A DNA stretch of 64,000 nt. It comes from a phage. The DNA lies in sequence record OZ336096.1; one strand, written 5' to 3'. A model generated the notes under the pieces. It did no database searches. It was not told the DNA's origin and saw only the letters and a list, made by a program, of their open reading frames with translations. This document shows, one piece after another, positions 3,830 through 63,555 of the stretch; position 1 is the stretch's first letter; every line of letters begins with the position of its first letter. The position numbers were made by a program, and so were the translations under genes.

Positions 3830-4930
3830 TTACTCATAATCCCTAATAACTAGCCCTACAGGAAACTGTAAAGAACCCTTACGAGTCATCTTCTGGAACT
3901 GAACAGTTAAAGGTTTCCCGATAAACTCTTCAGGATGCTCAGCAAGATACTGTTTCTTCTCATGAGTAGTCTTCCATGATACATCTACAAAGACGTTAGG
4001 AAGAGTCTCTACAACGAACTTGCCATGACCACGCTTATCAGTCTTTACACCAGTCACTTTAAACTCTTCAGTGTGCATCTTCTTGTGCTTAATCAAGAAG
4101 TATGAACGGTGACAGCACTCATAGAAGGAGTCTTCAGAGATTGAACGGTACATTGCACCTTCAAACTGAGCTTCAACCCACTTATCATGGGCTTCATCAA
4201 ACTCTTCCCAAGAATTTACACGGATAGTCTGTACAGGAACCACTCTACAGGTATCCCCAAGCTCAACAATAGGTGAACTATCAATAACTTCACGACGCTC
4301 AGGCCAAGATTTTGAATTGTCACAGATATCATACCAGTAGAATTTAAGAAGGTGACGGTCTGGATTGTCAGCATTCTTAATCATAGACACAATATCTTCT
4401 AAGTCCTGCCCATGAGCATAAATCTCACCATCAAAGTCTTCAACTTGTGGATGTAATTTAAGCAACAAAAGCAAATCTGGAATTAGTTCTGCTGGAACGT
4501 TGTAAACAGTATTCTCACGAGAATAAGCTGTGAAACTAACTGTATCAGCATCTCTTGAAATTCTACAACGTACACCATCAAGTTTTGGTTGAGCATCAGC
4601 AGGGAACTTCAAATACTTTGCATGGCTAACCTTTGCAGCATCATGAGCAAGCTGTACACCTACCTTCTCAGTATTCTGTGCAGACTCTTTTGTATAAGCA
4701 TAACCTTTACGGTCAACTTGCTTTTTATACTTAGCAGCAACTTCAAAGAGAGCTTGCTGTTCAGCGTTACGCTCATTCTTTTTACCGATGTTTTTAGGTT
4801 CTGCTGTATACTCTTCAAACATCATCTTGCCATTTTCTTTACCGTAGGTTGTAATAACTTTGTCACCTACAGCAACACATGACCAAACGTTAAAAGAGCC
4901 ATCTTTATTTTGTTTGTACAGTATTGTCAT
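3830..4930 (-). CDS. ATP-dependent DNA ligase
   Basis: 366 aa; nucleotidyltransferase motif I KLDGVR, motif III FDGEIY, motif IV EGAMYR, motif V LIKHKK; T7-ligase-like size. Confidence 0.75.
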   Translation of the reverse strand: MTILYKQNKDGSFNVWSCVAVGDKVITTYGKENGKMMFEEYTAEPKNIGKKNERNAEQQALFEVAAKYKKQVDRKGYAYTKESAQNTEKVGVQLAHDAAKVSHAKYLKFPADAQPKLDGVRCRISRDADTVSFTAYSRENTVYNVPAELIPDLLLLLKLHPQVEDFDGEIYAHGQDLEDIVSMIKNADNPDRHLLKFYWYDICDNSKSWPERREVIDSSPIVELGDTCRVVPVQTIRVNSWEEFDEAHDKWVEAQFEGAMYRSISEDSFYECCHRSYFLIKHKKMHTEEFKVTGVKTDKRGHGKFVVETLPNVFVDVSWKTTHEKKQYLAEHPEEFIGKPLTVQFQKMTRKGSLQFPVGLVIRDYE

Positions 4931-5803: not shown

Positions 5804-6337
5804 TCAACTTAGTTTTGCAAACTCTCCGTGGAGTTTAATAGCAGCTTCACAGTAAGCTTTATGGGCTTCTTCAGGGGTGTCATGGTGACCTAAAAACATC
5901 TTCTTACCTTTATAACTTATCTGTGCGACCCACTTACCAGACTTCTTCTTAAGACTTACACCCTTGTACCCAGATTTATTGGTGACTGGTTTACCTTTAT
6001 TCCAAGCACTTTGAAAATCATCTGCTTCCCTTAAGTTTACAATCCTGTTGTCAAGCGAGTCTCCGTTGATATGGTCAATGATACCTTTTGGCATCTTGCC
6101 ATACACGTAAAGCCATGCGAGTCTGTGTGCTTTATGTGCTTTCTTGTCAAAATAGATACTAATCTGTTTATGACCACTTGAATCAGTCTGGATATTACCT
6201 GCCACCTTTCCTGCATAATTACTGTTAAAAACACTAACAGCTCTTGATTTACCTTCTCTACGAAGCCAAGTAAAGACCCCTGTTTCGGGGTCATAGTGCA
6301 GCAGCTCCTTTAAACGTTTTTGTAAAATTAAGTCCAT
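5804..6337 (-). CDS. HNH homing endonuclease with AP2-like DNA-binding domain
   Basis: 177 aa; HNH motif IIDHINGDSLDNRIVNLR; C-terminal AP2-like SGYKGVSL..GKWVAQISYKGKK..LGHHDTPEEAHKAY; lies immediately downstream of the split polymerase gene. Confidence 0.75.
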   Translation of the reverse strand: MDLILQKRLKELLHYDPETGVFTWLRREGKSRAVSVFNSNYAGKVAGNIQTDSSGHKQISIYFDKKAHKAHRLAWLYVYGKMPKGIIDHINGDSLDNRIVNLREADDFQSAWNKGKPVTNKSGYKGVSLKKKSGKWVAQISYKGKKMFLGHHDTPEEAHKAYCEAAIKLHGEFAKLS

Positions 6338-6340
6338 TAA

Positions 6341-6895
6341 TCAATGTACCTCATACCAGCTCTTACCAACCTTTGCTGTACCAGTTACAAGTGTTTCTTT
6401 CCTCAAACCTAAGTTTTTTGAAGCTTGTCCATACATCCAGTCAGCAATTGCTTTCATATCCTGTGTCATACCCTCTGGACATTCCCAACTATTTTCATCG
6501 TGATATGCCAGAAGTAACCTTGCTCCGATAGCTGGTTTTCGAGCATTCAGTTTTGTCAGGCCATCTTCACAGGCTTTTCTTGCTGCTAGGTTGATGGCCT
6601 CATTCTGAATCTGTGCTTCCGAACTCATCAGGAGGTAGTTCAGTAGTTTATGTGGAGATTTGCACCATATCCATGCTCCAGCGACCCTGATATAACCACC
6701 TTTAGCAATTGAAGAATTCTTCCCAAAAACCTCTTCCAGAGCCTTTTTAGACGCCTTAAAATCGGCTTCTAAGCTATCAAGTAACTTCTTAATCTTTGGC
6801 AGACGCATATAGTAAGTTTGTTTAGTCAATGCACCTTCTTCCGTAGATGATGCTTTGATAGTTTTTGCAAACTTCTCGTCACCTGCACCGAACAA
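6341..6895 (-). CDS. DNA polymerase (family A), C-terminal exon/fragment
   Basis: Frame opens after a TGA as ..PDVLFGAGDEKFAKTIK (second half of motif B) and contains LLLAYHDENSWECPEG (motif C HDE). Confidence 0.7.
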   Translation of the reverse strand: MFGAGDEKFAKTIKASSTEEGALTKQTYYMRLPKIKKLLDSLEADFKASKKALEEVFGKNSSIAKGGYIRVAGAWIWCKSPHKLLNYLLMSSEAQIQNEAINLAARKACEDGLTKLNARKPAIGARLLLAYHDENSWECPEGMTQDMKAIADWMYGQASKNLGLRKETLVTGTAKVGKSWYEVH

Positions 6896-7160
6896 TACAT
6901 CTGGTCAATACACTCGCAAGGTGTACCAGTTCTCTTATGAACTTCTCCGCATTTCTACGGAGTGTCGGACTATATCACGTAGTAGTAATACTACCGTTGC
7001 ACTTGGGAATGGTCATTAGCTTACCACCCTACTCTACTCAGTTCATACATTAAGTATGCTTTTCGATAGTCTCTGAACGTTCCTCTTAAGAGGCTTCGCT
7101 GCTGATTACCATATCTTTTAAGACTTAGGCTTCCAGCAATTCACAACGTTTTACATGCGC
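6896..7160 (-). other. intervening sequence in DNA polymerase gene, putative small ORF-less group I intron (boundaries approximate)
   Basis: Upstream ORF stops at 7125 just after ..RKKSKNGIYAS (start of motif B); motif resumes at ~6898; RNA-sense sequence has GATATAGTCCGACACTCCGTAGAAATGCGGAG resembling the P9 region of the nrdD intron. Confidence 0.5.
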
Positions 7161-9308
7161 CACTGACGCATAGATGCCATTTTTGCTCTTCTTACGACCT
7201 TTTGTAATCTCGTGAAGAAGTTCCTCATCCTGTGTCTCCCTACAACGAACAATATCTTCTTCCTTGTTCAGACCAAAGTAAATACTGTTCAGTGTATGCG
7301 CATCAGTCCCTGTGTAGACTTCATAGAGGTCGTTCTCAGCATCATAACGAAGATACTTGTCAGTTTCTGGATTAAGATACTTATCGAGATGCTTGCAATA
7401 GTATCTTCCATCCTCTTGCTTAGTGAACTCTACTGACTCTTTACCCTCAGTTACTGCTTTAGTGAAGTCTTCATCACCCATAAAGTTACAAAGAAGAACT
7501 AGCTGGGCTGAGTTCTGGTCAACGGAAACGATGTTAGTCCCCTCCTCACAAATCCACACCTCCCTCATAGGTGCTCCATAGACAGCAGCACCAGACGGTA
7601 CGTTTACAATACCATATTGCGTCATACGTCCAGTTGAAGTACCAAACACCATTGCACCAGCACTAAGGCGACCATCTGGACGAATCTGGTTCAACCAACC
7701 TTTTTCATCATCCTTTGAGTTCTCAATAGTCCTGCGTCGGTGCATCAAAGTATAGTACTTAGCAATCTTCTGTCCAAGCTCACCTTCAATCGTATCATAA
7801 GATGATTCAGTAAGTTTTGGTGAAGTACGGATTAAGCAAGGCTCAAGCAAATCTGTGTACTTCTTCACAGACCAGTTATGTTCAATGTACTGGACACCTT
7901 CATGTTCAACATAACTCAAGCCGCACCGTTCAACCATCTCCTGCCACTTAGGATGCTTTGTAATCATCTTTTTGTTGTCTTTGAAACGACAAACTTTGAC
8001 AGGGCGACCATCTGAATCTTTCTTGTAGTTCCAGTCATCTGGAATCCAGCCAACTGATTTCAAGTAGTCTTTAACAACTGCTACTTGAGTCATACGAGAA
8101 ACTTCAAACTCAATTGGTGTATATGGTGCATCAATCAATCCTGTGTAGCGACTTGACTCCAGTCCAAAGTGGTTAACAACATGACTGTTATAGTACTTCA
8201 CAGTTTTAACTGTTTTTACTGGCTTCCAGTCTTTGCATTTCTTACCAATCTTTGCGTTCAACTCATTGCAAATTGCACGAGCATCCTTCATTGCTACAAA
8301 ACCCTCCTTGTACTCTTCACCAGTTACAGAGTTGGTTGGCGTATAGCAATTTCTCTTTTCAATGTTAAAAATCTTTGTAGTTGGCTTACCAAATGGTTTG
8401 ATTTCGTATGTCTGCATCTCACCGTTACGTACCTGCTGACGATACTTTGTCTTAGGGTACTTGGTAATCCTCTTCAGTCCATCTGCATGACCAAATGTTT
8501 CAACATACTCATTCCAAGCTTTTGCAAACTCTTCTCCAGTGACTTTACCTTTGGTCTTAATAGTTGGAGGAAGATGTGGTTCAACCTCTGAAGCAAGCTC
8601 ATTAGTCAACTTGTCAAGTTCCTTTACATGGAACTCCATAAGTTCTTTATCAGCTTTCCAACCATTGATAGCTTGTTGACTCATCCAGAAAGATGTTTCT
8701 TTAGCTCGCATGTAGGTTTCATAAGTGTCTATGCCACACTTCTTAAGCTTGAGATACTCATTATCAAGTGCCCGTTTAGTTTTGGCGTTAATACGGATAT
8801 CTTCTACAACACGAGTGAAGATTTCTGCATTCCACACACCCCAATGTTCAATCTCTGGTTTACGAACACCAACACGAGCACCCCATGCAGCCAAACCATG
8901 AGCACCTTTATAACCCTTTGGAGTTGGTCTATCCATCCACTGAACACGAGACTGGATAAGAGAATCCTGAAAGAAGTTACTCCACGGTTTACACTTTGGA
9001 TTATCAAAGTTCCATAAATCAGGTGCAATGTGGTTGAAAACCCACCAGTCATAACCGAGACCATTATGGATGCAAAGACGTTTTGCCTTTAACGCAAACT
9101 CAACACCTTCACGCAAACCACCCTTAATGTACTTGGTATACTTGTGACCGAGGATAGGCTCGTCTGTAAAGACCCATACAGGTGGCTCTTCATCGTCAGA
9201 TTTATAGTCTGCAAAGGCCATTACGTGAACTTTAGTGAACTCAAGGAGTAAACCATCAGTTTCTGTATCACCAACCAAATGTAAGTTTTTAAAATCTACG
9301 TTTTCCAT
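7125..9308 (-). CDS. DNA polymerase (family A) with 3'-5' exonuclease, N-terminal exon/fragment
   Basis: Exo I motif LVGDTETDGLL; motif A VSVDQNSAQLVLL; GTDAHTLNSIYFG; start chosen at MENVDF (9308) with GAGGGA RBS; ORF track gives 7125-9338. Confidence 0.8.
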   Translation of the reverse strand: MENVDFKNLHLVGDTETDGLLLEFTKVHVMAFADYKSDDEEPPVWVFTDEPILGHKYTKYIKGGLREGVEFALKAKRLCIHNGLGYDWWVFNHIAPDLWNFDNPKCKPWSNFFQDSLIQSRVQWMDRPTPKGYKGAHGLAAWGARVGVRKPEIEHWGVWNAEIFTRVVEDIRINAKTKRALDNEYLKLKKCGIDTYETYMRAKETSFWMSQQAINGWKADKELMEFHVKELDKLTNELASEVEPHLPPTIKTKGKVTGEEFAKAWNEYVETFGHADGLKRITKYPKTKYRQQVRNGEMQTYEIKPFGKPTTKIFNIEKRNCYTPTNSVTGEEYKEGFVAMKDARAICNELNAKIGKKCKDWKPVKTVKTVKYYNSHVVNHFGLESSRYTGLIDAPYTPIEFEVSRMTQVAVVKDYLKSVGWIPDDWNYKKDSDGRPVKVCRFKDNKKMITKHPKWQEMVERCGLSYVEHEGVQYIEHNWSVKKYTDLLEPCLIRTSPKLTESSYDTIEGELGQKIAKYYTLMHRRRTIENSKDDEKGWLNQIRPDGRLSAGAMVFGTSTGRMTQYGIVNVPSGAAVYGAPMREVWICEEGTNIVSVDQNSAQLVLLCNFMGDEDFTKAVTEGKESVEFTKQEDGRYYCKHLDKYLNPETDKYLRYDAENDLYEVYTGTDAHTLNSIYFGLNKEEDIVRCRETQDEELLHEITKGRKKSKNGIYASVAHVKRCELLEA

Positions 9309-9565
9309 TTTTACTCCCTCTAAAATCATTAACCACATACATTACTGCAAAAAATTATAAAAAGCAAGTTGACAATACACTTGACAAGGTGTTAATCTTT
9401 GCGAAGTGGGTTTTTACTTAAAAGGTTACTTAACAGTTTAACTATACAGATACTTTAAAACTCTTAAAAGATTATTTAATAGCTTTTAAAAAGCTTTAAA
9501 GTATAACGTATAGAATACGTTAAGATAAAAGATTAAAACTTAATAGTTACTTAAAAGAGGCTTAC

Positions 9566-22490: not shown

Positions 22491-23687
22491 ATGAACAAAG
22501 TACAAATTATTAAAAAGAATGGCTCACTTGAAGAACCGGATATCAAAAAAGTTTTAGTAGCAGTCACAAAGTCAGCTAACAGGGTTGGTTATAAAGAGCT
22601 TCCACCAGATGTTACTCAAGCCCTTGAGTCAGCATTTATGAGGATTCTGGTAAAATCTACTAAGCAGAATAATTTACTCGTTTCAGTAAATGATATTCAC
22701 AGTATTGTTGAAGGTGCTTTGGCAGAGGTCAATCACGAGATTTATGAGTCTTACTCAACATACAGAAATTACCGTAAAGAGGTTGCTCAAAATTGGGACG
22801 AACTCTACCAGAAGACTAAAGATACACTCTTCTTAGGTGACCGTGAAAATGCTAACTTTGACAGCAGTTTAATTTCTACGAAAGGTTCAATTATCCGTGG
22901 TTACCTGACTAAAGAAATCTTTAAACAGTATCATCTAACACCAGAGGAACTTGAAGCCATTGAGAAAGGCTTTATCTATATCCACGATTTGAGAGACCTG
23001 ATTTTTGGTGGTATTAACTGTTGCCTGTTTGACATTGGTAAAGTACTAAAAGGTGGCTTTGAAATGTCCGGCATTGAGTACTGTGAACCTAAATCTGTAC
23101 TGTCAGCGTTGCAGGTTATCGGTGACGTAGTACTTTCAGCAACTGCACAGCAATTTGGTGGATTTACTTTAGCAGAGATTGATAAGGTACTTGTACCGTA
23201 TGCTAAGAAGTCTCTACGCTATCATGCTGAGAAAGCAGCATCTTACGGTATTCCTAAAGAACATTACCATAATTATGTCATGGAGCAGCTACAGATTGAA
23301 TTAACTCAAGGTTTCCAGTCACTAGAGATGAAGCTAAATACTGTACCTTGTAGCCGTGGTGATTTCGCATTCACAACTTTAACATTTGGTTTACTTGACT
23401 CAGACATGTCTAATGAAGACAACCGACTACAATACATGATTGCAAACACCATTCTTGATGTTCGCATGAATGGACAAGGTAAGAGCAAGAAGCCTGTTGT
23501 ATTCCCTAAACTGGTTTATATTCATGACCAGAAGAGACACGATGAGAATATCTGTCAAGGTCAACTGTACAGTAAAGCTATTGAGTGTTGCTCTAAAGCT
23601 ATGTATCCAGATTTCTTAAGTGTATCTGGTCATGGTGCTGTAGCAGAGGCTTTTGAGCGTTCTGGCAAGGTAATTTCACCGATGGGT
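22491..23687 (+). CDS. nrdD: anaerobic ribonucleoside-triphosphate reductase, exon 1
   Basis: N-terminal ATP-cone; ORF ends ..VISPMG followed by in-frame TAA that I interpret as the first codon of the intron. Confidence 0.8.
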
Positions 23688-24003
23688 TAACAGGCTCTAT
23701 AGCTCATCTAAAACGTGCCTAAACAGGGAAACTCTACAGATGTAGACAATCCTGTGCTAAATGATGTACGATGTAAGAAACTATACAACATAGGAGTCTT
23801 ACATGCCAAATAACTTCGAATATGAGTTTGAATACATCTAAATGCCGAACGACTAACCGTGATGAATGTAGCGGTGTAGGGTCAAGCGACTCGAAATGGT
23901 ACGCTACTTAGAAATAAGTAGAAGATATAGTCTGGACTTACTGGCGACAGTAAGCAGCTTGAATAAAGCGGGGTAAGCTTAGCGAACTTACCTGAACAAC
24001 AAG
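23688..24003 (+). other. group I intron (ORF-less) interrupting nrdD
   Basis: 316 nt between exons; exon 1 ends in T, intron ends in G; contains GACAATCCTGTGCTAAAT, GGGTCAAGCGACTCGAAATGG, AGATATAGTCTGG, GGGGTAAG..CCTGAACAACAAG, which closely resemble core elements of the T4 td/nrdD introns as I remember them. Confidence 0.75.
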
Positions 24004-24951
24004 TGTAGAGCGTTTTTATCACCATACCATAACGAATATGGTGAAGAGTTTTATGTAGGTCGTGCTAATATTGGTGCTGTATCTTTGAACTTACCAATGA
24101 TTTACCAGTATTCTAAAGAGAATGGTTTAGATTTCTGGAAAGAGCTTGATAAGTACCTAGAGATGATTCGCAGCTTCCACAAGAAACGCTACGAAATGAT
24201 TGCTAATATGCCAGCAAGTTCTAACCCTCTTGCATTTACACAAGGTGGTCTGTACAAAGGGACTAAGAAACCTACTGATAAGGTTGGCTGGGATATTGTG
24301 AAGTCCTTCACAGCTTCTTTTGGGGTTACTGCACTAGACGAGCTATCTGTTCTTGCTGAAGGTAAGCGACTTCATGAAGTTGGAAGCTGTAGTTTTGCAT
24401 ATGATGTTCTGGAATATATCAACATAAAGACTGAAGAGTTTAAAAATGAAGATGGTTTCTTATATGCAGTCTATGGCACTCCAGCAGAATCACTTTGTGG
24501 AACTCAGCTAAAACAGTTCAGAGATATGTTTGGCGTTATCAAAGGTGTTTCTGATAAAGAATACTTTACAAATAGTTTCCATATGAATGTTGCAGCAGAC
24601 ATTACACCATTTGAGAAGCAGGACTTAGAAGAACCTTTCTTCCATATCTGTAGAGGTGGCAGAATCCAGTATGTAAGGGTAGCTAACCCAGAAAACTTAC
24701 CAGCACTTAAAAGTTGTATTACAAGAGGGATGTTGAAAGGTTTCTATCAGGGACTTAACTTTGACTTAGCAATCTGTGAACATTGTGGTAACAGACCAAA
24801 GGCTGATGTTGAAGAATGTGAGGTTTGCCATTCACACGATATCTCTGTGATTAACAGGGTGTGTGGGTACTTGTCATTCACAAAAATTAAAGGTCAGTCT
24901 CGAATGAATGACGCTAAGATGGCAGAAATTAAGGATAGGGTTTCTATGTAA
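24004..24951 (+). CDS. nrdD: anaerobic ribonucleoside-triphosphate reductase, exon 2
   Basis: Frame open from 23998; CRAFLSPY..FYVGRANIGAVSLNLP; C-terminal Zn site CEHCGN..CEVCHSHD and glycyl-radical motif RVCGYL. Confidence 0.8.
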   Translation, partial: CRAFLSPYHNEYGEEFYVGRANIGAVSLNLPMIYQYSKENGLDFWKELDKYLEMIRSFHKKRYEMIANMPASSNPLAFTQGGLYKGTKKPTDKVGWDIVKSFTASFGVTALDELSVLAEGKRLHEVGSCSFAYDVLEYINIKTEEFKNEDGFLYAVYGTPAESLCGTQLKQFRDMFGVIKGVSDKEYFTNSFHMNVAADITPFEKQDLEEPFFHICRGGRIQYVRVANPENLPALKSCITRGMLKGFYQGLNFDLAICEHCGNRPKADVEECEVCHSHDISVINRVCGYLSFTKIKGQSRMNDAKMAEIKDRVSM

Positions 24952-58605: not shown

Positions 58606-58682
58606 CTCTGTTTAGCTCAGCTTGGTAGAGCGTTCCGTTTGGGGCGGTAAGGCCGGAGGTTCAAGTCCTCCAACAGAGACCA
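58606..58682 (+). tRNA. tRNA-Pro (anticodon UGG)
   Basis: 7 bp acceptor CTCTGTT/AACAGAG, D-arm TAGCTCAGCTTGGTAGAGC, T-loop GGTTCAAGTCC, CCA encoded; hand-folded. Confidence 0.6.
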
Positions 58683-58689
58683 AATTAAT

Positions 58690-58767
58690 GTTCCAGTAGA
58701 CAAAACGGTAAAGTCACCACTCTTTCAAAGTGGATATTTGAGGGTTCAAATCCCTTCTGGAACGCCA
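58690..58767 (+). tRNA. tRNA-Glu (UUC)
   Basis: Acceptor GTTCCAG/CTGGAAC, anticodon loop CTTTCAA, T-loop GGTTCAAATCC. Confidence 0.7.
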
Positions 58768-58858
58768 GTTTTGACAGAAGACCAATTGCAGCAAACTTAA
58801 TCTTATTCATCTGACACGAAATCGGACAAAGAAGAGATTTGGTCTGGTCATTAAGAAT

Positions 58859-58935
58859 TGCGGGTATAGAGAAAGGGCGTCTCACATGTCTCATTAGCAT
58901 GGTATCGGCAGGTTCGACTCCTGCACCCGCCTCCA
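58859..58935 (+). tRNA. tRNA-Met (CAU)
   Basis: Anticodon stem CATGT/GCATG, loop CTCATTA, T-loop GGTTCGACTCC; 1-72 mismatch. Confidence 0.55.
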
Positions 58936-59012
58936 ATTTTGCAGAAGACCGTATTCAGCAACAAAATACTTTTTGCGGATAAAAGAAAAAACACGGTCTG
59001 GCAATGTATTAA

Positions 59013-59089
59013 GGTTAGGAAGCACATAAGGTATGTGCGGTCGCCTGTTAAGCGAATGGCACAGGGTTCGAATCCCTGACTAACCGCCA
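59013..59089 (+). tRNA. tRNA-Asn (GUU)
   Basis: Acceptor GGTTAGG, loop CTGTTAA, T-loop GGTTCGAATCC. Confidence 0.65.
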
Positions 59090-59098
59090 AATTTAAAT

Positions 59099-59186
59099 GT
59101 GTCGTTATCCCGTAGATGGTAGCGGTGGGGACTGTAAATCCCTTGTCATTGAGACTCGGTAGGTTCGACTCCTACACGGCACACCA
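59099..59186 (+). tRNA. tRNA-Tyr (GUA), long variable arm
   Basis: Acceptor GTGTCGT/ACGGCAC, loop CTGTAAA, long variable arm, T-loop GGTTCGACTCC. Confidence 0.65.
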
Positions 59187-59192
59187 AATAAA

Positions 59193-59270
59193 GGTTATGT
59201 AGTTTAATCTGGTTAAAATACTCCCCTGTCACGGGAGATGATGAGGGTTCAAATCCCTTCGTAACCGCCA
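59193..59270 (+). tRNA. tRNA-Asp (GUC)
   Basis: Acceptor GGTTATG/CGTAACC, AC stem CTCCC/GGGAG, loop CTGTCAC. Confidence 0.7.
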
Positions 59271-59493
59271 AATTATAATAAGTATTTCAAGATGATGTTT
59301 TGAGAGGGCTATTTAGCCCCTCCCTTAAAGAGTTCTTACGAGTATTCTTTAAAGGAGCAGAAGACCAAATTCAGCAAGTACGTATGATATTTTCAAGCCA
59401 ATTTAATTTTGAAAAATTTAAAACTTGGTCTGGCTCAACAGATTTACAGAAGACCGTTTACAGCAAAACTTAAACAATCTATTTCTCCGGTAA

Positions 59494-59556
59494 AGAAAAG
59501 GCGAAGGTTCGATTCCTTCACTCGGCAGATGTCGAGTTGGTGTAATGGTAGCACTT
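59494..59556 (+). pseudogene. tRNA-like halves in permuted order (3' half then 5' half)
   Basis: GGCGAAGGTTCGATTCCTTCACTCGGCAG (T-arm + 3' acceptor) immediately followed by GTCGAGTTGGTGTAATGGTAGCAC (5' acceptor + D-arm); the two acceptor strands are complementary to each other. Confidence 0.35.
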
Positions 59557-59727
59557 AAGATGATAAACAACGGTCTGGTAATTATCTTTGTAGATAAGTT
59601 ATTAAGCTTACCTGTGAGTATGCGACCACAAAGGGTGAAAGGGTAAATTCTAGATTTAAACCCAACAAGGCACATCGCTACAGACCTTAAGCAAGTCTGG
59701 GTAGCTTATCTACAAAGATAATTTAAT

Positions 59728-59803
59728 GGAAGTGTAGCAGAATGGTGATGCGGCAGACTTTTAATCTGACAGGCGATGGGTTCGAATCCCTCCACTTCTA
59801 CCA
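59728..59803 (+). tRNA. tRNA-Lys (UUU)
   Basis: Acceptor GGAAGTG/CACTTCT, loop CTTTTAA, T-loop GGTTCGAATCC. Confidence 0.6.
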
Positions 59804-59807
59804 ATAT

Positions 59808-59884
59808 GGTTCAGTCGCAGATAAGGTAATGCAGGGGTCTCATAAGCCCTATGAATGTGGGTTCGATTCCCATCTGAACCTCCA
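59808..59884 (+). tRNA. tRNA with CAU anticodon (Met or lysidine-Ile)
   Basis: Acceptor GGTTCAG/CTGAACC, loop CTCATAA, T-loop GGTTCGATTCC. Confidence 0.6.
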
Positions 59885-59885
59885 A

Positions 59886-59961
59886 GCTGGTATAGTTAAG
59901 AAGGTTATAACACTCCCCTGATAAGGGAACATCGGTGGTTCGATTCCACCTACCAGTACCA
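59886..59961 (+). tRNA. tRNA-Ile (GAU)
   Basis: Acceptor GCTGGTA/TACCAGT, loop CTGATAA, T-loop GGTTCGATTCC. Confidence 0.65.
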
Positions 59962-60298
59962 ATTTCAATAAAGTTGTTGACATTGAGATGTGACCACTTT
60001 TTAGTAACTAAAATACTTCATAATATGTATAATTCAAACACCAATACATGAGCGTTAGACGTAACACAATGTGGGGAAATTTGTTGTACATATTCTGAAT
60101 AGTTTTCGTTGCGTAGCGTCTATTTTGCAAATTTAAAATAAATGCAAACGACAATGTTTTTCTGGCAGTAGCTTGATAGGCTAAACACCAGTGAGGTCTT
60201 CCAATCCCTCATCAAAGAATTTGGCGTACTAGCCCACGGTATGATTAATAAAGTGGGCATCTTTAAGGGCTTTCTAAGAGAGTCTTTAAAGATAATTA

Positions 60299-60380
60299 CG
60301 GGGCGTATCTCAGCTGTCTTCTAAACAGCCGTTAACCGAGTAAGTGGAGTATGCGGGTTCGAGTCCTGCCGCCTCGACCA
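60299..60380 (+). tRNA. atypical tRNA-like gene, possibly tRNA-Arg (UCU)
   Basis: Acceptor CGGGGCG/CGCCTCG + ACCA, T-loop GGTTCGAGTCC, perfect anticodon hairpin GCTGT-CTTCTAA-ACAGC, but no recognisable D-arm and a long segment after the anticodon arm. Confidence 0.35.
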
Positions 60381-60523
60381 ATTTAGTTAGCAGATTACTT
60401 AGACGACCTAAGCGGGTCTTCCTGTAGGGAGGTGGTCTGTATCTCATGTTTTCCAGAACATGTAAATAATCTGAGAAGAAGCTTGACAGTGTTGAGATAA
60501 TACGGTAAGCTTCGAATTATAGT

Positions 60524-60606
60524 ATGGGACGATGTTAAGACTCTAAGGCATGAGCAACGGCTTCCAACACCGTTTCAAAGGGGTTCAACTCCTCCGTCCC
60601 ATGCCA
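60524..60606 (+). tRNA. atypical tRNA-like gene, possibly tRNA-Trp (CCA)
   Basis: Acceptor ATGGGAC/GTCCCAT + GCCA, T-loop GGTTCAACTCC; anticodon region AACGG-CTTCCAACA-CCGTT allows a 7 nt loop (CCA) or a 9 nt loop; extra nucleotides in the D region. Confidence 0.4.
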
Positions 60607-60619
60607 AAGTCTTATTAGG

Positions 60620-60709
60620 GGTAGGTAGCGGCTAATGGTAGCCAAACTGTCTTGAAAACAGTTGCCACTGTAGAGATACGGTGAGGGTTCGACTCCTTTA
60701 CTTACCGCC
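60620..60709 (+). tRNA. tRNA-Ser (UGA), long variable arm
   Basis: AC stem ACTGT/ACAGT, loop CTTGAAA, long variable arm, T-loop GGTTCGACTCC; 3' end GCC (CCA not fully encoded). Confidence 0.65.
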
Positions 60710-60862
60710 TAATAAGATTTAAAGCCAAGCTTCATTCGGATGTTGCTTTGGTATCCCTCGTGTTGTCGAACACACTAATAAAGCACCTAGTAGGTGTCAC
60801 GGAGAAGAGATAATATCAAGCTCTCCAAAGGTCCTAGTCACCGGATTAAACAAGACTATGCA

Positions 60863-60884
60863 AAGACCTTTTTAGGTCTTTTTA
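60863..60884 (+). terminator. intrinsic terminator
   Basis: AAGACCTTTTTAGGTCTT hairpin followed by TTT. Confidence 0.5.
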
Positions 60885-60962
60885 GAGGGCTTCTAAGGTT
60901 ATTGCAGCTTGTTGTGGAACCTTGTTGCTTAGGTTCTTAGAAGTTCTCTAAAAAGATTTAAT

Positions 60963-61040
60963 GGGAGATTGACGGTAATTGGTAAACCTACCATCCTTAG
61001 AAGTTGGTGTTTGAGGGTTCGAATCCCTTGTCTCCTACCA
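60963..61040 (+). tRNA. tRNA with UAG anticodon (Leu-type), short variable arm
   Basis: Acceptor GGGAGAT/GTCTCCT, loop CTTAGAA, T-loop GGTTCGAATCC, discriminator A. Confidence 0.5.
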
Positions 61041-61047
61041 AATTAAT

Positions 61048-61123
61048 GCAGGTGTAGCAAAATGGTTATGCGGCTGACTCTTAATCAGTAAGACGATGGG
61101 TTCAATTCCCTCCACCTGTACCA
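61048..61123 (+). tRNA. tRNA-Lys (CUU)
   Basis: Acceptor GCAGGTG/CACCTGT, loop CTCTTAA, T-loop GGTTCAATTCC. Confidence 0.6.
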
Positions 61124-61129
61124 AACATT

Positions 61130-61205
61130 GGGGATGTAGTTTACATGGTTAAAACATAAGTTTTGCAAACTTAAGTACAGGGTTCAATTCCCTGCTTCTC
61201 CACCA
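61130..61205 (+). tRNA. tRNA-Ala (UGC)
   Basis: AC stem TAAGT/ACTTA, loop TTTGCAA, T-loop GGTTCAATTCC. Confidence 0.65.
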
Positions 61206-61211
61206 ATTAGT

Positions 61212-61286
61212 GCATCCATAGTTTAAACGGGAAAATTACAGTCTTCCAAACTGAGGTTGAGGGTTCGATTCCCTCTGGATGCTCCA
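61212..61286 (+). tRNA. tRNA-Gly (UCC)
   Basis: Perfect acceptor GCATCCA/TGGATGC, loop CTTCCAA, T-loop GGTTCGATTCC. Confidence 0.7.
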
Positions 61287-61293
61287 AATTAAT

Positions 61294-61370
61294 GCTGCTT
61301 TCGTATAATTGGCTATTACACATCCCTTGTAAGGATGGAAATGCAGGTTCGAGTCCTGTGAGCAGCACCA
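61294..61370 (+). tRNA. tRNA-Thr (UGU)
   Basis: Acceptor GCTGCTT/GAGCAGC, AC stem CATCC/GGATG, loop CTTGTAA, T-loop GGTTCGAGTCC. Confidence 0.75.
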
Positions 61371-61465
61371 ATTCAGAGGTCAAGTGAAAGACCGCTGGTG
61401 TCAACTGAAGACCGTAACAAATTCCACGGAGTTGAGTTAGCGGCACAACTTCAGACCTCTTCCAT

Positions 61466-61540
61466 ACTCGCTTAGTTTATATGGTAAAACATCACCCTTA
61501 CAAGATGAAGAAAAAGGTTCAAGTCCTTTAGTGAGTACCA
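61466..61540 (+). tRNA. tRNA-Val (UAC)
   Basis: Acceptor ACTCGCT/AGTGAGT, loop CTTACAA, T-loop GGTTCAAGTCC. Confidence 0.65.
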
Positions 61541-61541
61541 T

Positions 61542-61619
61542 GTTCCAGTATCCCAATTGGCAGAGGATGCAAGCTCAAACCTTGTACTAGTGACGGTTCG
61601 AATCCGTCTTGGAACACCA
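61542..61619 (+). tRNA. tRNA with CAA anticodon (Leu-type), short variable arm
   Basis: Acceptor GTTCCAG/TTGGAAC, AC stem GCAAG/CTTGT, loop CTCAAAC, T-loop GGTTCGAATCC, discriminator A. Confidence 0.5.
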
Positions 61620-61638
61620 ATTTTAAGAGGCTATTTAG

Positions 61639-62196
61639 ATGAGATATTTGAAGTATGCTTCATGGATTTTCCTAGCTTTACTAGAACCATTTGCAGCAAC
61701 CCTAGCAGTCATCTTAGCACCTTTCGTAGTTCCATTCTACAGTGAGAAGAAAGGACATCTACCTTTTGGATTCAGATGGATGGAGACCTATGACAACCCG
61801 ATTGATGGTGATGAAGGCCACGTTAAAAGATGGGCTAAGGTTAGAAAGATTGGTAAGCTGGGTGTCTACATGCAGAGAGTTGGATGGCTCTGGAGAAACA
61901 AAGCTTATAACTTCTCTTACCATGTATTAGGAAGAGATGTAAAAGATGTTACTAAGTGGAAAGGTAATATCAACGTAAGTTCTGACCCTGAAGATAATCA
62001 GACTGGTTATCTCCTAATGTGGAACAGTAATGCTTGGGGATTATTCGCTTTTATCCCATCAATTAAAGTCTTTGGTAAACAGTTTTACTGGAGAATTTAT
62101 ATTGGATGGAAACTAAAAAGTGTTGTCCCAGAAGAAAGAGCATTCTCAAGGGGAAGAGTTATGTTGGCATTCTTTATTCATCCACTGAGAAAGTAA
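61639..62196 (+). CDS. hypothetical membrane-anchored protein embedded in the tRNA cluster
   Basis: 185 aa ORF with AAGAGG RBS; N-terminal hydrophobic helix. Confidence 0.5.
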   Translation: MRYLKYASWIFLALLEPFAATLAVILAPFVVPFYSEKKGHLPFGFRWMETYDNPIDGDEGHVKRWAKVRKIGKLGVYMQRVGWLWRNKAYNFSYHVLGRDVKDVTKWKGNINVSSDPEDNQTGYLLMWNSNAWGLFAFIPSIKVFGKQFYWRIYIGWKLKSVVPEERAFSRGRVMLAFFIHPLRK

Positions 62197-62204
62197 AGAT
62201 TTAA

Positions 62205-62280
62205 AGGGGATTAGTTTACAAGGTTAAAACCTCGGTCTTTGAAATCGAAGAAGTTGGTTCAATTCCAACATCCCCCGCCA
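62205..62280 (+). tRNA. tRNA-Gln (UUG)
   Basis: D-stem GTTT/AAAC, AC stem TCGGT/ATCGA, loop CTTTGAA, T-loop GGTTCAATTCC. Confidence 0.6.
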
Positions 62281-62282
62281 AT

Positions 62283-62361
62283 GCTCCATTACTCCAATTG
62301 GCAGAGAGGCCAGACTTAAAATCTGTGTTATGTATCGGTTCGAATCCGATATGGAGTACCA
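62283..62361 (+). tRNA. tRNA with UAA anticodon (Leu-type), short variable arm
   Basis: Acceptor GCTCCAT/ATGGAGT, loop CTTAAAA, T-loop GGTTCGAATCC, discriminator A. Confidence 0.5.
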
Positions 62362-62366
62362 AATTT

Positions 62367-62442
62367 AGCGGTATAGCATAACTGGCAATGCAGCAGTCTC
62401 TGAAGCTGTCCTATTAAGGTTCAAATCCTTATGCCGCTGCCA
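62367..62442 (+). tRNA. tRNA-Gln (CUG)
   Basis: Acceptor AGCGGTA/TGCCGCT, loop CTCTGAA, T-loop GGTTCAAATCC. Confidence 0.6.
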
Positions 62443-62473
62443 CTTCTAAGGTTTCTTACGAGAGTCCTTAAAT

Positions 62474-62549
62474 GTGGCCTTATCATAAATGGTAATGACC
62501 CATGCTGTGAACATGGTCTATACGGGTTCAAATCCCGTAGGTCACCCCA
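62474..62549 (+). tRNA. tRNA-His (GUG)
   Basis: D-stem TCAT/ATGA, AC stem CCATG/CATGG, loop CTGTGAA, T-loop GGTTCAAATCC. Confidence 0.75.
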
Positions 62550-62555
62550 ATTTAT

Positions 62556-62631
62556 AGTCCAAGTGGCTTATATGGTTAAAGCGCGTGTCTGAAAAACATG
62601 AGAAGAGGGTTCAAATCCCACTGGACTACCA
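62556..62631 (+). tRNA. tRNA-Phe (GAA)
   Basis: Acceptor TAGTCCA/TGGACTA, loop CTGAAAA, T-loop GGTTCAAATCC. Confidence 0.6.
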
Positions 62632-62647
62632 ATTTCAAAGGTGCTTA

Positions 62648-63382
62648 ATGAAAGAGATGACAGAACAAGGTAAGGAGATTTTTAATCTCTTAAAAACCGG
62701 TAAAGGGTTTTCTAATCCCCTTATTACTGGTGCAGCAGTTCTAGGTGGAACCGTGGCTGCCTCTACATCACTTGTAAGCTCTATTAGCTCTGTAACAGAC
62801 CCTACAATGAAGGATAAACTTGTTGCTGCTGGACTTACAACAGTCCTTCTAAACAGCTTTACAACAAGCCTGACAAGCACTACAGCAACTACTAAGACCC
62901 TAACAGACTATGGTCAAAAATCTATTGATGAGTTTTCATCACGTATGCAGGTAGCAAAGGGATACTCCAATGTTATGGGTGCAGCAGGAGAACAAGTTGG
63001 TTGTACACCATTCAGTGGTATTATGGGTGTTGCTACAGAGTATGGTCAAAAAGCTATTGACATGATGAACAGTACACTAGATAGTGTTAATGGTGTGTTA
63101 AGTGACTTACAGGACGCTATTGACAAGGGTCTTGATACTGTTTCTGATTTAGCTAACCAAGCTGTCAGTAAGATTAATGAAGGTATCTCAAAGATTACAG
63201 CTTATGCAGATGAAGTTGTGCAGATGATTGAAGAAGAGGCTGCCCTTATTGCAGAGTACCTTAAAACGAATATCAATGGGTTCTTAGCAGGTATCTTACC
63301 AGACTGGTTTGATGATGCTTGTAAAACTGGTGTAATTGACACTATTGCAACACCAGAAATGAAGAACGCATTACAGAAATAA
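62648..63382 (+). CDS. hypothetical Ser/Thr-rich protein embedded in the tRNA cluster
   Basis: ORF 62585-63382 trimmed to ATG 62648 so it no longer overlaps tRNA-Phe; hydrophobic segment ITGAAVLGGTVAAS; stop abuts tRNA-Ser. Confidence 0.45.
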   Translation: MKEMTEQGKEIFNLLKTGKGFSNPLITGAAVLGGTVAASTSLVSSISSVTDPTMKDKLVAAGLTTVLLNSFTTSLTSTTATTKTLTDYGQKSIDEFSSRMQVAKGYSNVMGAAGEQVGCTPFSGIMGVATEYGQKAIDMMNSTLDSVNGVLSDLQDAIDKGLDTVSDLANQAVSKINEGISKITAYADEVVQMIEEEAALIAEYLKTNINGFLAGILPDWFDDACKTGVIDTIATPEMKNALQK

Positions 63383-63383
63383 T

Positions 63384-63476
63384 GGAAGATTAACCCTAAA
63401 AGGTAAGGGAGCAGTTTGCTAAACTGCCAGTAGCTGAGAAATCGGTGTACCAGTTCAAGTCTGGTATCTTCCTCCA
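63384..63476 (+). tRNA. tRNA-Ser (GCU), long variable arm
   Basis: Perfect acceptor GGAAGAT/ATCTTCC, AC stem GCAGT/ACTGC, loop TTGCTAA, long variable arm, T-loop AGTTCAAGTCT. Confidence 0.8.
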
Positions 63477-63480
63477 ATTT

Positions 63481-63555
63481 GAATCCGTGACAGAAATGGA
63501 TATGTGCCTGTCTGCAAAACAGGTTTATAAGGGTTCGAGTCCCTTCGGATTCTCC
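63481..63555 (+). tRNA. tRNA-Cys (GCA)
   Basis: Perfect acceptor GAATCCG/CGGATTC, AC stem CCTGT/ACAGG, loop CTGCAAA, T-loop GGTTCGAGTCC. Confidence 0.8.

Follow-up and report, generated by a model that had tools for sequence, protein, structure and literature searches.

A putative group I intron without an open reading frame in motif B of a Felix O1-like phage's DNA polymerase gene, and its free-standing HNH-AP2 neighbour

The DNA analysed here, a stretch of 64,000 nucleotides (nt) from sequence record OZ336096.1 that we call the window, is the genome of a Felix O1-like phage of the genus Felixounavirus. The region studied matches other Felix O1-like phages at 98% identity or less, with Escherichia phage L27 as the top match. 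On the minus strand, the window's open reading frames (ORFs) and the alignments described below define exon 1 of a family A DNA polymerase gene (7166..9338), a candidate group I intron of 268 nt that contains no ORF (6898..7165; first base C7165, terminal G, or omega-G, at 6898), exon 2 of the same gene (6341..6897, with the stop codon at 6343..6341 and motif C, YHDE, inside) and a free-standing gene for a 177-residue endonuclease with HNH_3 and AP2 domains (5804..6337). The best overall explanation of this arrangement, and one that we hold with considerable confidence, is that an optional, ORF-less group I intron is inserted in motif B of the polymerase gene and that a separate HNH-AP2 cassette stands behind it.

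The polymerase gene is plainly interrupted in the DNA. A first minus-strand ORF (9338..7125) ends in ...RKKSKNGIYASVAHVKRCELLEA, or, when quoted at greater length, in ...GRKKSKNGIYASVAHVKRCELLEA; in a second (6895..6341), the frame upstream of the start at 6895 reads ..PDVLFGAGDEKFAKTIK. The boundaries of the intervening sequence were set by aligning the window to the uninterrupted polymerase genes of phages Z31 and CRP22. By this alignment, exon 1 closes with ...AAT GGC ATC TAT GCG T (N G I Y A, followed by the initial base of a Leu codon), and exon 2 opens with TA TTG TTC GGT GCA GGT GAC GAG AAG (..L L F G A G D E K). Joining position 7166 to 6897 creates a coding sequence (CDS) of 2730 nt, whose 909-residue product is colinear with the uninterrupted Z31 polymerase and whose junction, NGIYA|LLFGAGDEK (NGIYALLFGAGDEK), is identical to the polymerases of both Z31 and CRP22. 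The spliced RNA is predicted to read ...ATCTATGCGT|TATTGTTCGG across this point. Because an in-frame TAA codon (7127..7125, minus strand) lies 40 nt inside the intron, after 13 intron-encoded residues (SVAHVKRCELLEA), unspliced RNA could give rise to a truncated product only.

The joined protein scores 50.4 bits against the Pfam model DNA_pol_A (PF00476), for which the cut-off is 34.3 bits; exon 1 alone (17.3 bits) and exon 2 alone (25.8 bits) both fall below it. The joined sequence could be aligned to Taq polymerase and to T7 gp5 across motifs A, B and C. The insertion splits motif B (the O-helix) in codon phase 1, one base into a Leu codon, in the context ..K N G I Y A | L L F G A G D E K. 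In T7 gp5 the corresponding point is G527|F528; in E. coli Pol I, by motif register, it would be approximately residues 763/764. A first-pass annotation, made by a model from the letters and ORFs alone, had already placed the split in motif B by comparison with T7 gp5. The alignment bears this out, with the R of RKKSK falling on T7 gp5 residue 518, and the ORF endings and openings quoted in that annotation were all found where it had put them. Its interval for the intervening sequence (6896..7160, about 265 nt) was close in position, but the true ends, 7165..6898, differ from it by 2 and 5 nt.

The intervening sequence itself has the features of a group I ribozyme. When the whole window was scanned with the Rfam model Intron_gpI (RF00028), a match was found at 7177..6945 (minus strand) with a score of 64.5 bits (E 4.6e-14), well placed against the gathering score of 50 bits; the entire model, positions 1-253, was matched. 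The first-pass annotation had named an Infernal-type scan as a check on its proposal of a compact, ORF-less group I intron, and the outcome agrees with that proposal. The intron begins CAGUGG... and ends ...CCAGAUG, with G6898 as the terminal base. The Rfam alignment and a listing of its pairs place the P1 helix at 7155..7171 (minus strand), where exon bases AUGCGU (7171..7166) and C7165 are paired with the guide sequence GGCGCAU (7161..7155). Within P1, a U7166.G7160 wobble marks the 5' splice site, and this pairing is invariant in six variants. A 4-bp P10 may also form between CAGU (7165..7162) and AUUG of exon 2 (6896..6893), as read from the sequence.

Helices P1, P3, P4, P5/P5a, P6/P6a, P7, P7.1, P7.2, P8, P9, P9.1 and P9.2 can all be drawn with standard base pairs. 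P7 was placed by hand, with GACUAU (7071..7066) pairing to AUAGUC (6973..6968), and thus spans 6968..7071 on the minus strand. Inside that span lie P7.1 (7058..7044) and P7.2 (7029..7005), both from the manual structure together with minimum-free-energy (MFE) folding, and the 3' strand of P3 (7001..6995) and P8 (6994..6979), from the manual structure. The P6a hairpin, CCUC-UUAA-GAGG, was located at 7082..7093 (minus strand) by aligning the 268-, 311- and 802/805-nt forms of the intron that are described below. Extra hairpins P7.1 and P7.2 are typical of subgroup IA2. Since both hairpins stand after P7 and ahead of P3's 3' strand, we regard the architecture as IA2-like, an assignment made by hand. 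The tetraloop of P5a (7118..7121, minus strand) is polymorphic in introns that are otherwise identical, reading UAAA in the window and BPS17L1, GUAA in L27 and 35FD, GAGA in fBSPA4 and GGAA in BPS17W1; all but the window's UAAA are GNRA loops.

In the predicted splicing reaction, exon bases AUGCGU of the pre-mRNA would pair with the intron guide GGCGCAU to form P1, exogenous guanosine would attack after U7166, and the freed exon 1 would then attack after the terminal G6898. The ligated mRNA would encode one polymerase of 909 residues. These steps are the standard chemistry of group I introns. We consider it highly probable that the element is an intron of the self-splicing type whose removal produces a single polymerase. 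Several lines of evidence carry less weight than they may appear to, however, and they temper this conclusion. The manual structure has 74 base pairs, and all 444 cells (100%) are paired across six ORF-less variants from related phages; the few substitutions among these variants fall in loops or, in P8, are compensatory (U-A to C-G via U-G). But these sequences share 99% identity, the window's own sequence served to draw the structure, and the P8 change is the only compensatory pair. In a covariation test, shuffles reached the observed score in 105 of 500 trials, and the MFE z-score of -1.36 is unremarkable. Neither within-genus covariation nor thermodynamic folding was therefore retained as evidence for the structure. 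Independent support for the intron comes from the Rfam model and from the exact restoration of the gene, and splicing is deduced from DNA rather than from RNA or protein.

Is the polymerase instead truly split? If the intervening sequence were retained, the phage would make two polypeptides, or the gene would be a pseudogene, or another polymerase would be used. Many GenBank records do give two "DNA polymerase" CDSs, one of which even names the second a "DNA polymerase subunit", and a TTG at 6895 might serve as a start codon for exon 2. The break, however, falls within the O-helix motif B, whose residues work jointly, and what interrupts it is a high-scoring group I intron with splice-site signals in the correct places. 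Once it is excised, the gene lines up exactly with its uninterrupted homologues; the Pfam threshold is passed by the joined protein alone, both exons are intact across relatives, and the interruption is present in dozens of viable, plaque-isolated phages. On these grounds, we judge retention of the sequence to be very improbable. Inteins, frameshifting and translational bypass were also considered and ruled out, given that the 268 nt are not a multiple of three, contain in-frame stops and match the ribozyme model with a high score.

Group I introns in the family A polymerase genes of phages are already well known, and the window intron is a further case. Three insertion sites have been described in phage PolA: 674 (SPO1, SP82, Bastille, Pf-WMP3), 676 (phiL7) and 881 (the T7-like phages PhiI and W31) (Kong et al. 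2012, PMC3428280). These introns (IA2) resemble the present one in that they are group I introns in a conserved PolA motif, have HNH-type endonucleases associated with them and occur in ORF-less and ORF-containing versions in related phages. They differ in three respects. The site in the window, in motif B, is none of the three listed in PMC3428280; the host is a Felixounavirus myovirus; and the ORF found in some Felixounavirus introns is of the Endonuclease VII type rather than an I-HmuI-like HNH protein.

A closer counterpart is found in Escherichia phage LAMP, a Kuravirus (MG673519; locus L042, 2448..2711). There, too, motif B of PolA (RDNAKTFIYAFN|Y GAGDAK) is interrupted by a group I intron, which scores 100.8 bits against Rfam; its record already gives the polymerase CDS as a join. 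The two introns are about 85% identical over 53 nt of the P3-P5 core. By our reading of the splice sites, the LAMP intron follows RDNAKTFIYAFN plus one base, and so lies 6 nt (two codons) downstream of the Felixounavirus site. It also differs in having a P2 hairpin, in belonging to a different phage family and in lacking an adjacent HNH-AP2 gene in the annotated region. In the uncultured crAss-like phage cr3_1 (MT774381; locus L041, 2501..3568), the polymerase is annotated as two CDSs about 1 kb apart; in the gap are an ORF of 237 residues, whose N-terminus is GIY-YIG-like, and a stretch that shares 75% identity with the P3-P6 core of the window intron. The cr3_1 interruption was set aside as a comparable intron, its core scoring below the Rfam gathering threshold.

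Within the genus, the intron varies both in occurrence and in form. A search of the phage collection identified about 97 records that hold most of it; it is missing from Felix O1, Z31, UAB_Phi87 and wV8-like genomes, among many others. The 268-nt ORF-less form occurs in the window, L27, 35FD, BPS17L1, BPS17W1 and fBSPA4. A form of 802-805 nt (JLBYU32, DE7, VSe102) has a longer P6a stem, whose loop contains an ORF of 161 residues. This internal ORF matches Pfam Endonuclease_7 (PF02945; E 8e-20) and is unrelated to the neighbouring HNH_3-AP2 gene; its ratio of nonsynonymous to synonymous divergence (dN/dS) is 0.03, indicative of strong purifying selection. In phage Mushroom, a 311-nt form keeps the flanks of the ORF but not the ORF itself, and is an ORF-deleted remnant. 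The 268-nt form, on the other hand, is not simply a fresh deletion of the long one, because the base of its P6a stem differs from that of the ORF-containing forms by a compensatory C-G versus U-A change. Polymorphism among close relatives is thus seen directly, and the intron is, on this comparison of genomes, a mobile, optional DNA-level element that has been both gained and lost.

The gene behind the polymerase is just as variable. In the window, its start codon lies 3 nt past the polymerase stop codon, which agrees with the first-pass placement of an HNH-AP2 endonuclease just downstream of exon 2. The ORF (6337..5804) scores 54.5 bits for HNH_3 (E 9e-15) and 48.1 bits for AP2 (E 1e-12), both above the Pfam cut-offs; it matches the HNH endonuclease family PHROG 99 (E 5e-72), and its AP2 domain aligns with plant AP2/ERF structures. 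This gene represents lineage A of four lineages that occupy the same slot: A (177 residues, with a 175-residue variant, A2), B (178 or 174), C (170) and D (167). They share 43-55% amino-acid identity and all have HNH_3 and AP2 domains, yet their last 25 residues are identical, DTPEEAHKAYCEAAIKLHGEFAKLS (including loci L005, L008, L011, L010, L020 and L021). This common end suggests that cassettes are swapped through a shared 3' recombination flank. The lineage A gene is intact at 10 of 10 loci, with dN/dS of 0.13-0.25 (purifying selection). UAB_Phi87, JLBYU32 and five IMG/VR loci have no HNH-AP2 gene in the slot; when one is present, it always follows the polymerase gene directly. The pattern is that expected of a free-standing homing-endonuclease cassette that has been repeatedly replaced, with nuclease activity presumed from the domains.

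The DNA around the insertion site records a complicated history. After joining, the intron-plus alleles read TAT GCG T|TA TTG TTC GGT GCA GGT GAY. Intronless alleles are of two sorts: type A, TAC GCC CTG TTA TTT GGA GCC GGA GAC, and type B, TAT GCA CTG CTG TTC GGT GCA GGT GAT. The window and Z31 have the same haplotype, and their surrounding exon sequences are about 97-100% identical; nevertheless, a 23-nt patch from -5 to +18 (in the window, 7170..7166 plus 6897..6880, within 6880..7170 on the minus strand) differs at nine synonymous positions. Type B differs from the exon flanks of the intron at three or four bases. Among the intron-plus alleles, the synonymous positions +9..+18 are hypervariable, and mosaic variation is found in the upstream stretch as well. 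Repeated transfers at the DNA level, with co-conversion tracts of variable length, would be expected to produce such a pattern.

On a larger scale, the polymerase gene's final ~850 nt form a mosaic of haplotypes that are 65-100% identical, and the sequence upstream is about 95-100% identical (window ~6341..7500 compared with loci L012, L020, L021 and L004). The divergent 3' haplotypes are 65-85% identical, dropping to about 50% around +300 nt, counted from the insertion site. Breakpoints recur near -450..-300, about +270 nt and the stop codon of the polymerase gene; the insertion site, too, has breakpoints around it. An attempt to locate the HNH cut site from the 3' recombination breakpoints was given up, as there are several different ones.

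The type of the empty site is related to the lineage of the nuclease gene that follows it. All seven intronless loci with the 177-residue lineage A gene have the type A site, as do all four with lineage D; together these make 11 of 11. The opposite is true of lineage B (three loci) and of variant A2 (three loci), at which only type B or B-like sites are found. Lineage C accompanies type A at one locus and type B or B-like sites at four, and the seven loci without any HNH gene are all type B or B-like. A more general rule, that an HNH gene always accompanies the type A site, was true of the first 17 loci, was then broken by IMG/VR and further GenBank loci, and holds for A and D only.

The occurrence of the intron and of the HNH-AP2 gene was compared in a sample drawn from the phage collection by a composite query (built from the intron, its ORF and the four HNH lineages); every third ranked record was taken, of which 57 were informative. 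An ORF-less or remnant intron is present in 18 records, each with an adjacent HNH-AP2 gene (lineage A in 10, B in three, C in four and D in one). Of the 14 records with an ORF-containing intron, only four have the adjacent gene, which is always of lineage C. The remaining 25 have no intron and an HNH-AP2 gene (25 of 25). From a comparison of search totals, some 80-90 further members of the genus have neither element. An endonuclease gene thus accompanies every intron in the sample, whether internally or directly alongside, and the contrast between 18/18 and 4/14 is significant by Fisher's test (p = 1.6e-5, with near-identical isolates included).

This co-occurrence offers real but non-independent support for mobilisation in trans by the neighbouring nuclease. 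A cut made nearby by the HNH-AP2 enzyme would be repaired by gene conversion, and the ORF-less intron would be carried along, as is the case with mobE of T4. We see the chances as evenly balanced that it is the HNH-AP2 neighbour which, by this route, has allowed the ORF-less intron to spread and persist; a functional link between the two is our inference and goes beyond the co-occurrence observed.

The T4 precedent is instructive. There, inheritance of the nrdB intron depends on mobE, as crosses have demonstrated (Wilson & Edgell 2009, PMC2790892). In both phages, a free-standing HNH gene adjoins a gene whose intron has no working endonuclease of its own, and in both the HNH gene is promoterless and packed tightly behind the upstream gene (in the window, 3 nt past the stop codon). 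The dependence in T4 is known from crosses, however, whereas the link in the window comes from co-occurrence only, and the T4 intron keeps a defunct ORF where the window intron has none. To our knowledge, no AP2 domain has been reported for MobE.

A number of facts weigh against mobilisation by the neighbour. The counts of the association are phylogenetically non-independent, and about five of them can be taken as separate associations. At 10 loci, an uninterrupted type B site is found together with HNH lineage B, C or A2, and the enzymes in question therefore probably leave that site uncut. The association of the type A site with lineages A and D (11/11) may be no more than linkage in one haplotype block. 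Finally, the intron ORFs differ from each other by a synonymous divergence (dS) of about 0.6, whereas the ribozyme cores around them are 98-99% identical (loci L004, 3613..4098; L007, 1760..2242; L009, 1761..2246). Conservation of the core therefore reflects constraint and not recent spread, and the use of that conservation as proof of recent horizontal transfer was ruled out. The difference in rate could be due to exchange of the ORF or to a very strong constraint acting on the RNA.

A stricter version of the same idea is collaborative homing, in which a free-standing endonuclease and an ORF-less intron converge on one site (reviewed in PMC3984707 and PMC2988022). The first-pass annotation had noted a resemblance to it. 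Applied here, the HNH-AP2 enzyme would cut uninterrupted motif B DNA at the insertion site, carriers would be protected by the intron or by a recoded site, and the cut would drive the ORF-less intron into sensitive alleles. There is much in the data that fits. An ORF-less intron in a conserved gene and a free-standing endonuclease close by are both present in the window genome; HNH-AP2 genes stand beside all 18 ORF-less introns and only four of the 14 that contain an ORF; the intronless carriers of lineages A and D have a variant insertion site, the type A patch with nine substitutions at -5..+18, without exception (11/11); genomes with no HNH gene are all type B (7/7); positions +9..+18 are hypervariable in intron-plus alleles; and the reviews just cited provide precedent. 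The resemblance extends this far, but the other lineages tolerate a near-identical uninterrupted site, and the 10 loci that combine lineage B, C or A2 with type B would be cutting themselves. In other words, the notion that the nuclease cuts the unvaried insertion site would suit lineages A and D and is contradicted for B, C and A2. Further, the type A patch could have hitch-hiked in a haplotype block that holds the HNH gene, or it could confer resistance to the intron-encoded Endonuclease VII-type enzyme instead; HNH-AP2 cleavage, like its target in the window, is presumed only. The intron ORF of the relatives also departs from the scheme, and because it belongs to another nuclease family it was not captured from the neighbouring gene. 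Cleavage at the insertion site itself is accordingly a reading that we think unlikely.

It is also conceivable that the two elements have nothing to do with one another. The intron and the HNH-AP2 gene would then be two selfish elements without any relationship, their distance of 557 nt in a recombination hotspot would be a coincidence, and the ORF-less intron would derive from the ORF-containing one by loss of the ORF, followed by vertical inheritance or ordinary recombination. Each element does occur by itself: the intron without the HNH gene in JLBYU32, and the HNH gene without the intron in Z31, Felix O1 and many others. The Endonuclease_7 ORF has no relationship to HNH_3-AP2, phage Mushroom supplies an example of an ORF-deleted remnant, and the ~850-nt mosaic of haplotypes at the 3' end of the polymerase gene fits a hotspot. 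Mosaics of this kind are reportedly typical of nuclease-rich regions. The contrast between 18/18 and 4/14 would not be expected among independent neighbours, however, and neither would the pairing of ORF-less introns with all four HNH lineages; the P6a difference also argues against a simple recent deletion as the source of the 268-nt form. We give this independence somewhat less credence than mobilisation by a nearby HNH-AP2 cut, to which we return as our preferred account of the association.

These observations raise a broader possibility, which we put forward as speculative and, on balance, improbable: that the Felixounaviruses hold a natural and still-active system of trans or collaborative homing. 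In such a system, the ORF-less intron would survive only beside an HNH-AP2 gene, four nuclease lineages would compete for the slot, carriers would escape self-cutting by means of the intron or of a fully recoded motif B site, and the Endonuclease VII-type ORF would have colonised the intron independently. If this were true, all of the intermediate stages would be at hand in cultivable coliphages and Salmonella phages. Whichever account is correct, the genus offers an unusually complete natural series: an empty site, a recoded site, an ORF-less intron, an ORF-containing intron, an ORF remnant and four swappable nuclease genes. With this series present in easily grown phages, the origin and maintenance of mobile introns, whether by collaborative or by trans homing, could be tested by simple crosses.

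A literature search for an earlier description of the Felixounavirus polymerase intron found none. The paper on phage SPJ41 mentions "two introns" in a single line, without detail (PMC9951933), and the Felix O1 genome paper reports no introns (PMC3185647); the Felix O1 isolate is indeed without the polymerase intron. The records of relatives that we inspected annotate two polymerase CDSs. About 100 deposited Felix O1-like genomes give two "DNA polymerase" CDSs or a "subunit", which the exact splice coordinates convert to one joined CDS of 909 residues. Felix O1-like phages are widely used for biocontrol and typing of Salmonella and E. coli, and a correct annotation of their polymerase therefore has practical value. 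The motif B position also adds an intron insertion site to those of the family A polymerases, one near the site in the Kuravirus LAMP.

A second group I intron interrupts nrdD, the gene for anaerobic ribonucleotide reductase. It matches RF00028 at 23604..23954 (plus strand; 52.7 bits versus the gathering score of 50), between ORFs 22491..23690 and 24085..24951, and the gap of about 394 nt has no ORF. In UAB_Phi87, the nrdD interruption holds a gene for a homing endonuclease of 154 residues, and a split nrdD has been noted in the genus (PMC4837284). The string GATATAGTCCGACACTCCGTAGAAATGCGGAG in the polymerase intron (6976..6945) occurs once in the window, with none expected by chance, and the first-pass annotation had likened it to a P9-like region of the nrdD intron. 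That likeness did not hold up. The string consists only of the generic group I P7-3' consensus (GAUAUAGUC) and a hairpin, and no copy with three or fewer mismatches was found in the nrdD intron.

An ATP-dependent DNA ligase gene lies at 3830..4930 (minus strand; Pfam DNA_ligase_A_M), and between it and the HNH gene are small ORFs whose number and order vary among relatives. Two records labelled "Campylobacter phage A132/A126" (MG065664, MG065668) and one labelled Staphylococcus are about 95% identical to the Felixounavirus region at 100% query coverage; they are probably mislabelled or contaminated deposits. At 58606..63553 (plus strand), Rfam tRNA matches reveal a cluster of 22 tRNA genes, as is expected for Felix O1-like phages.

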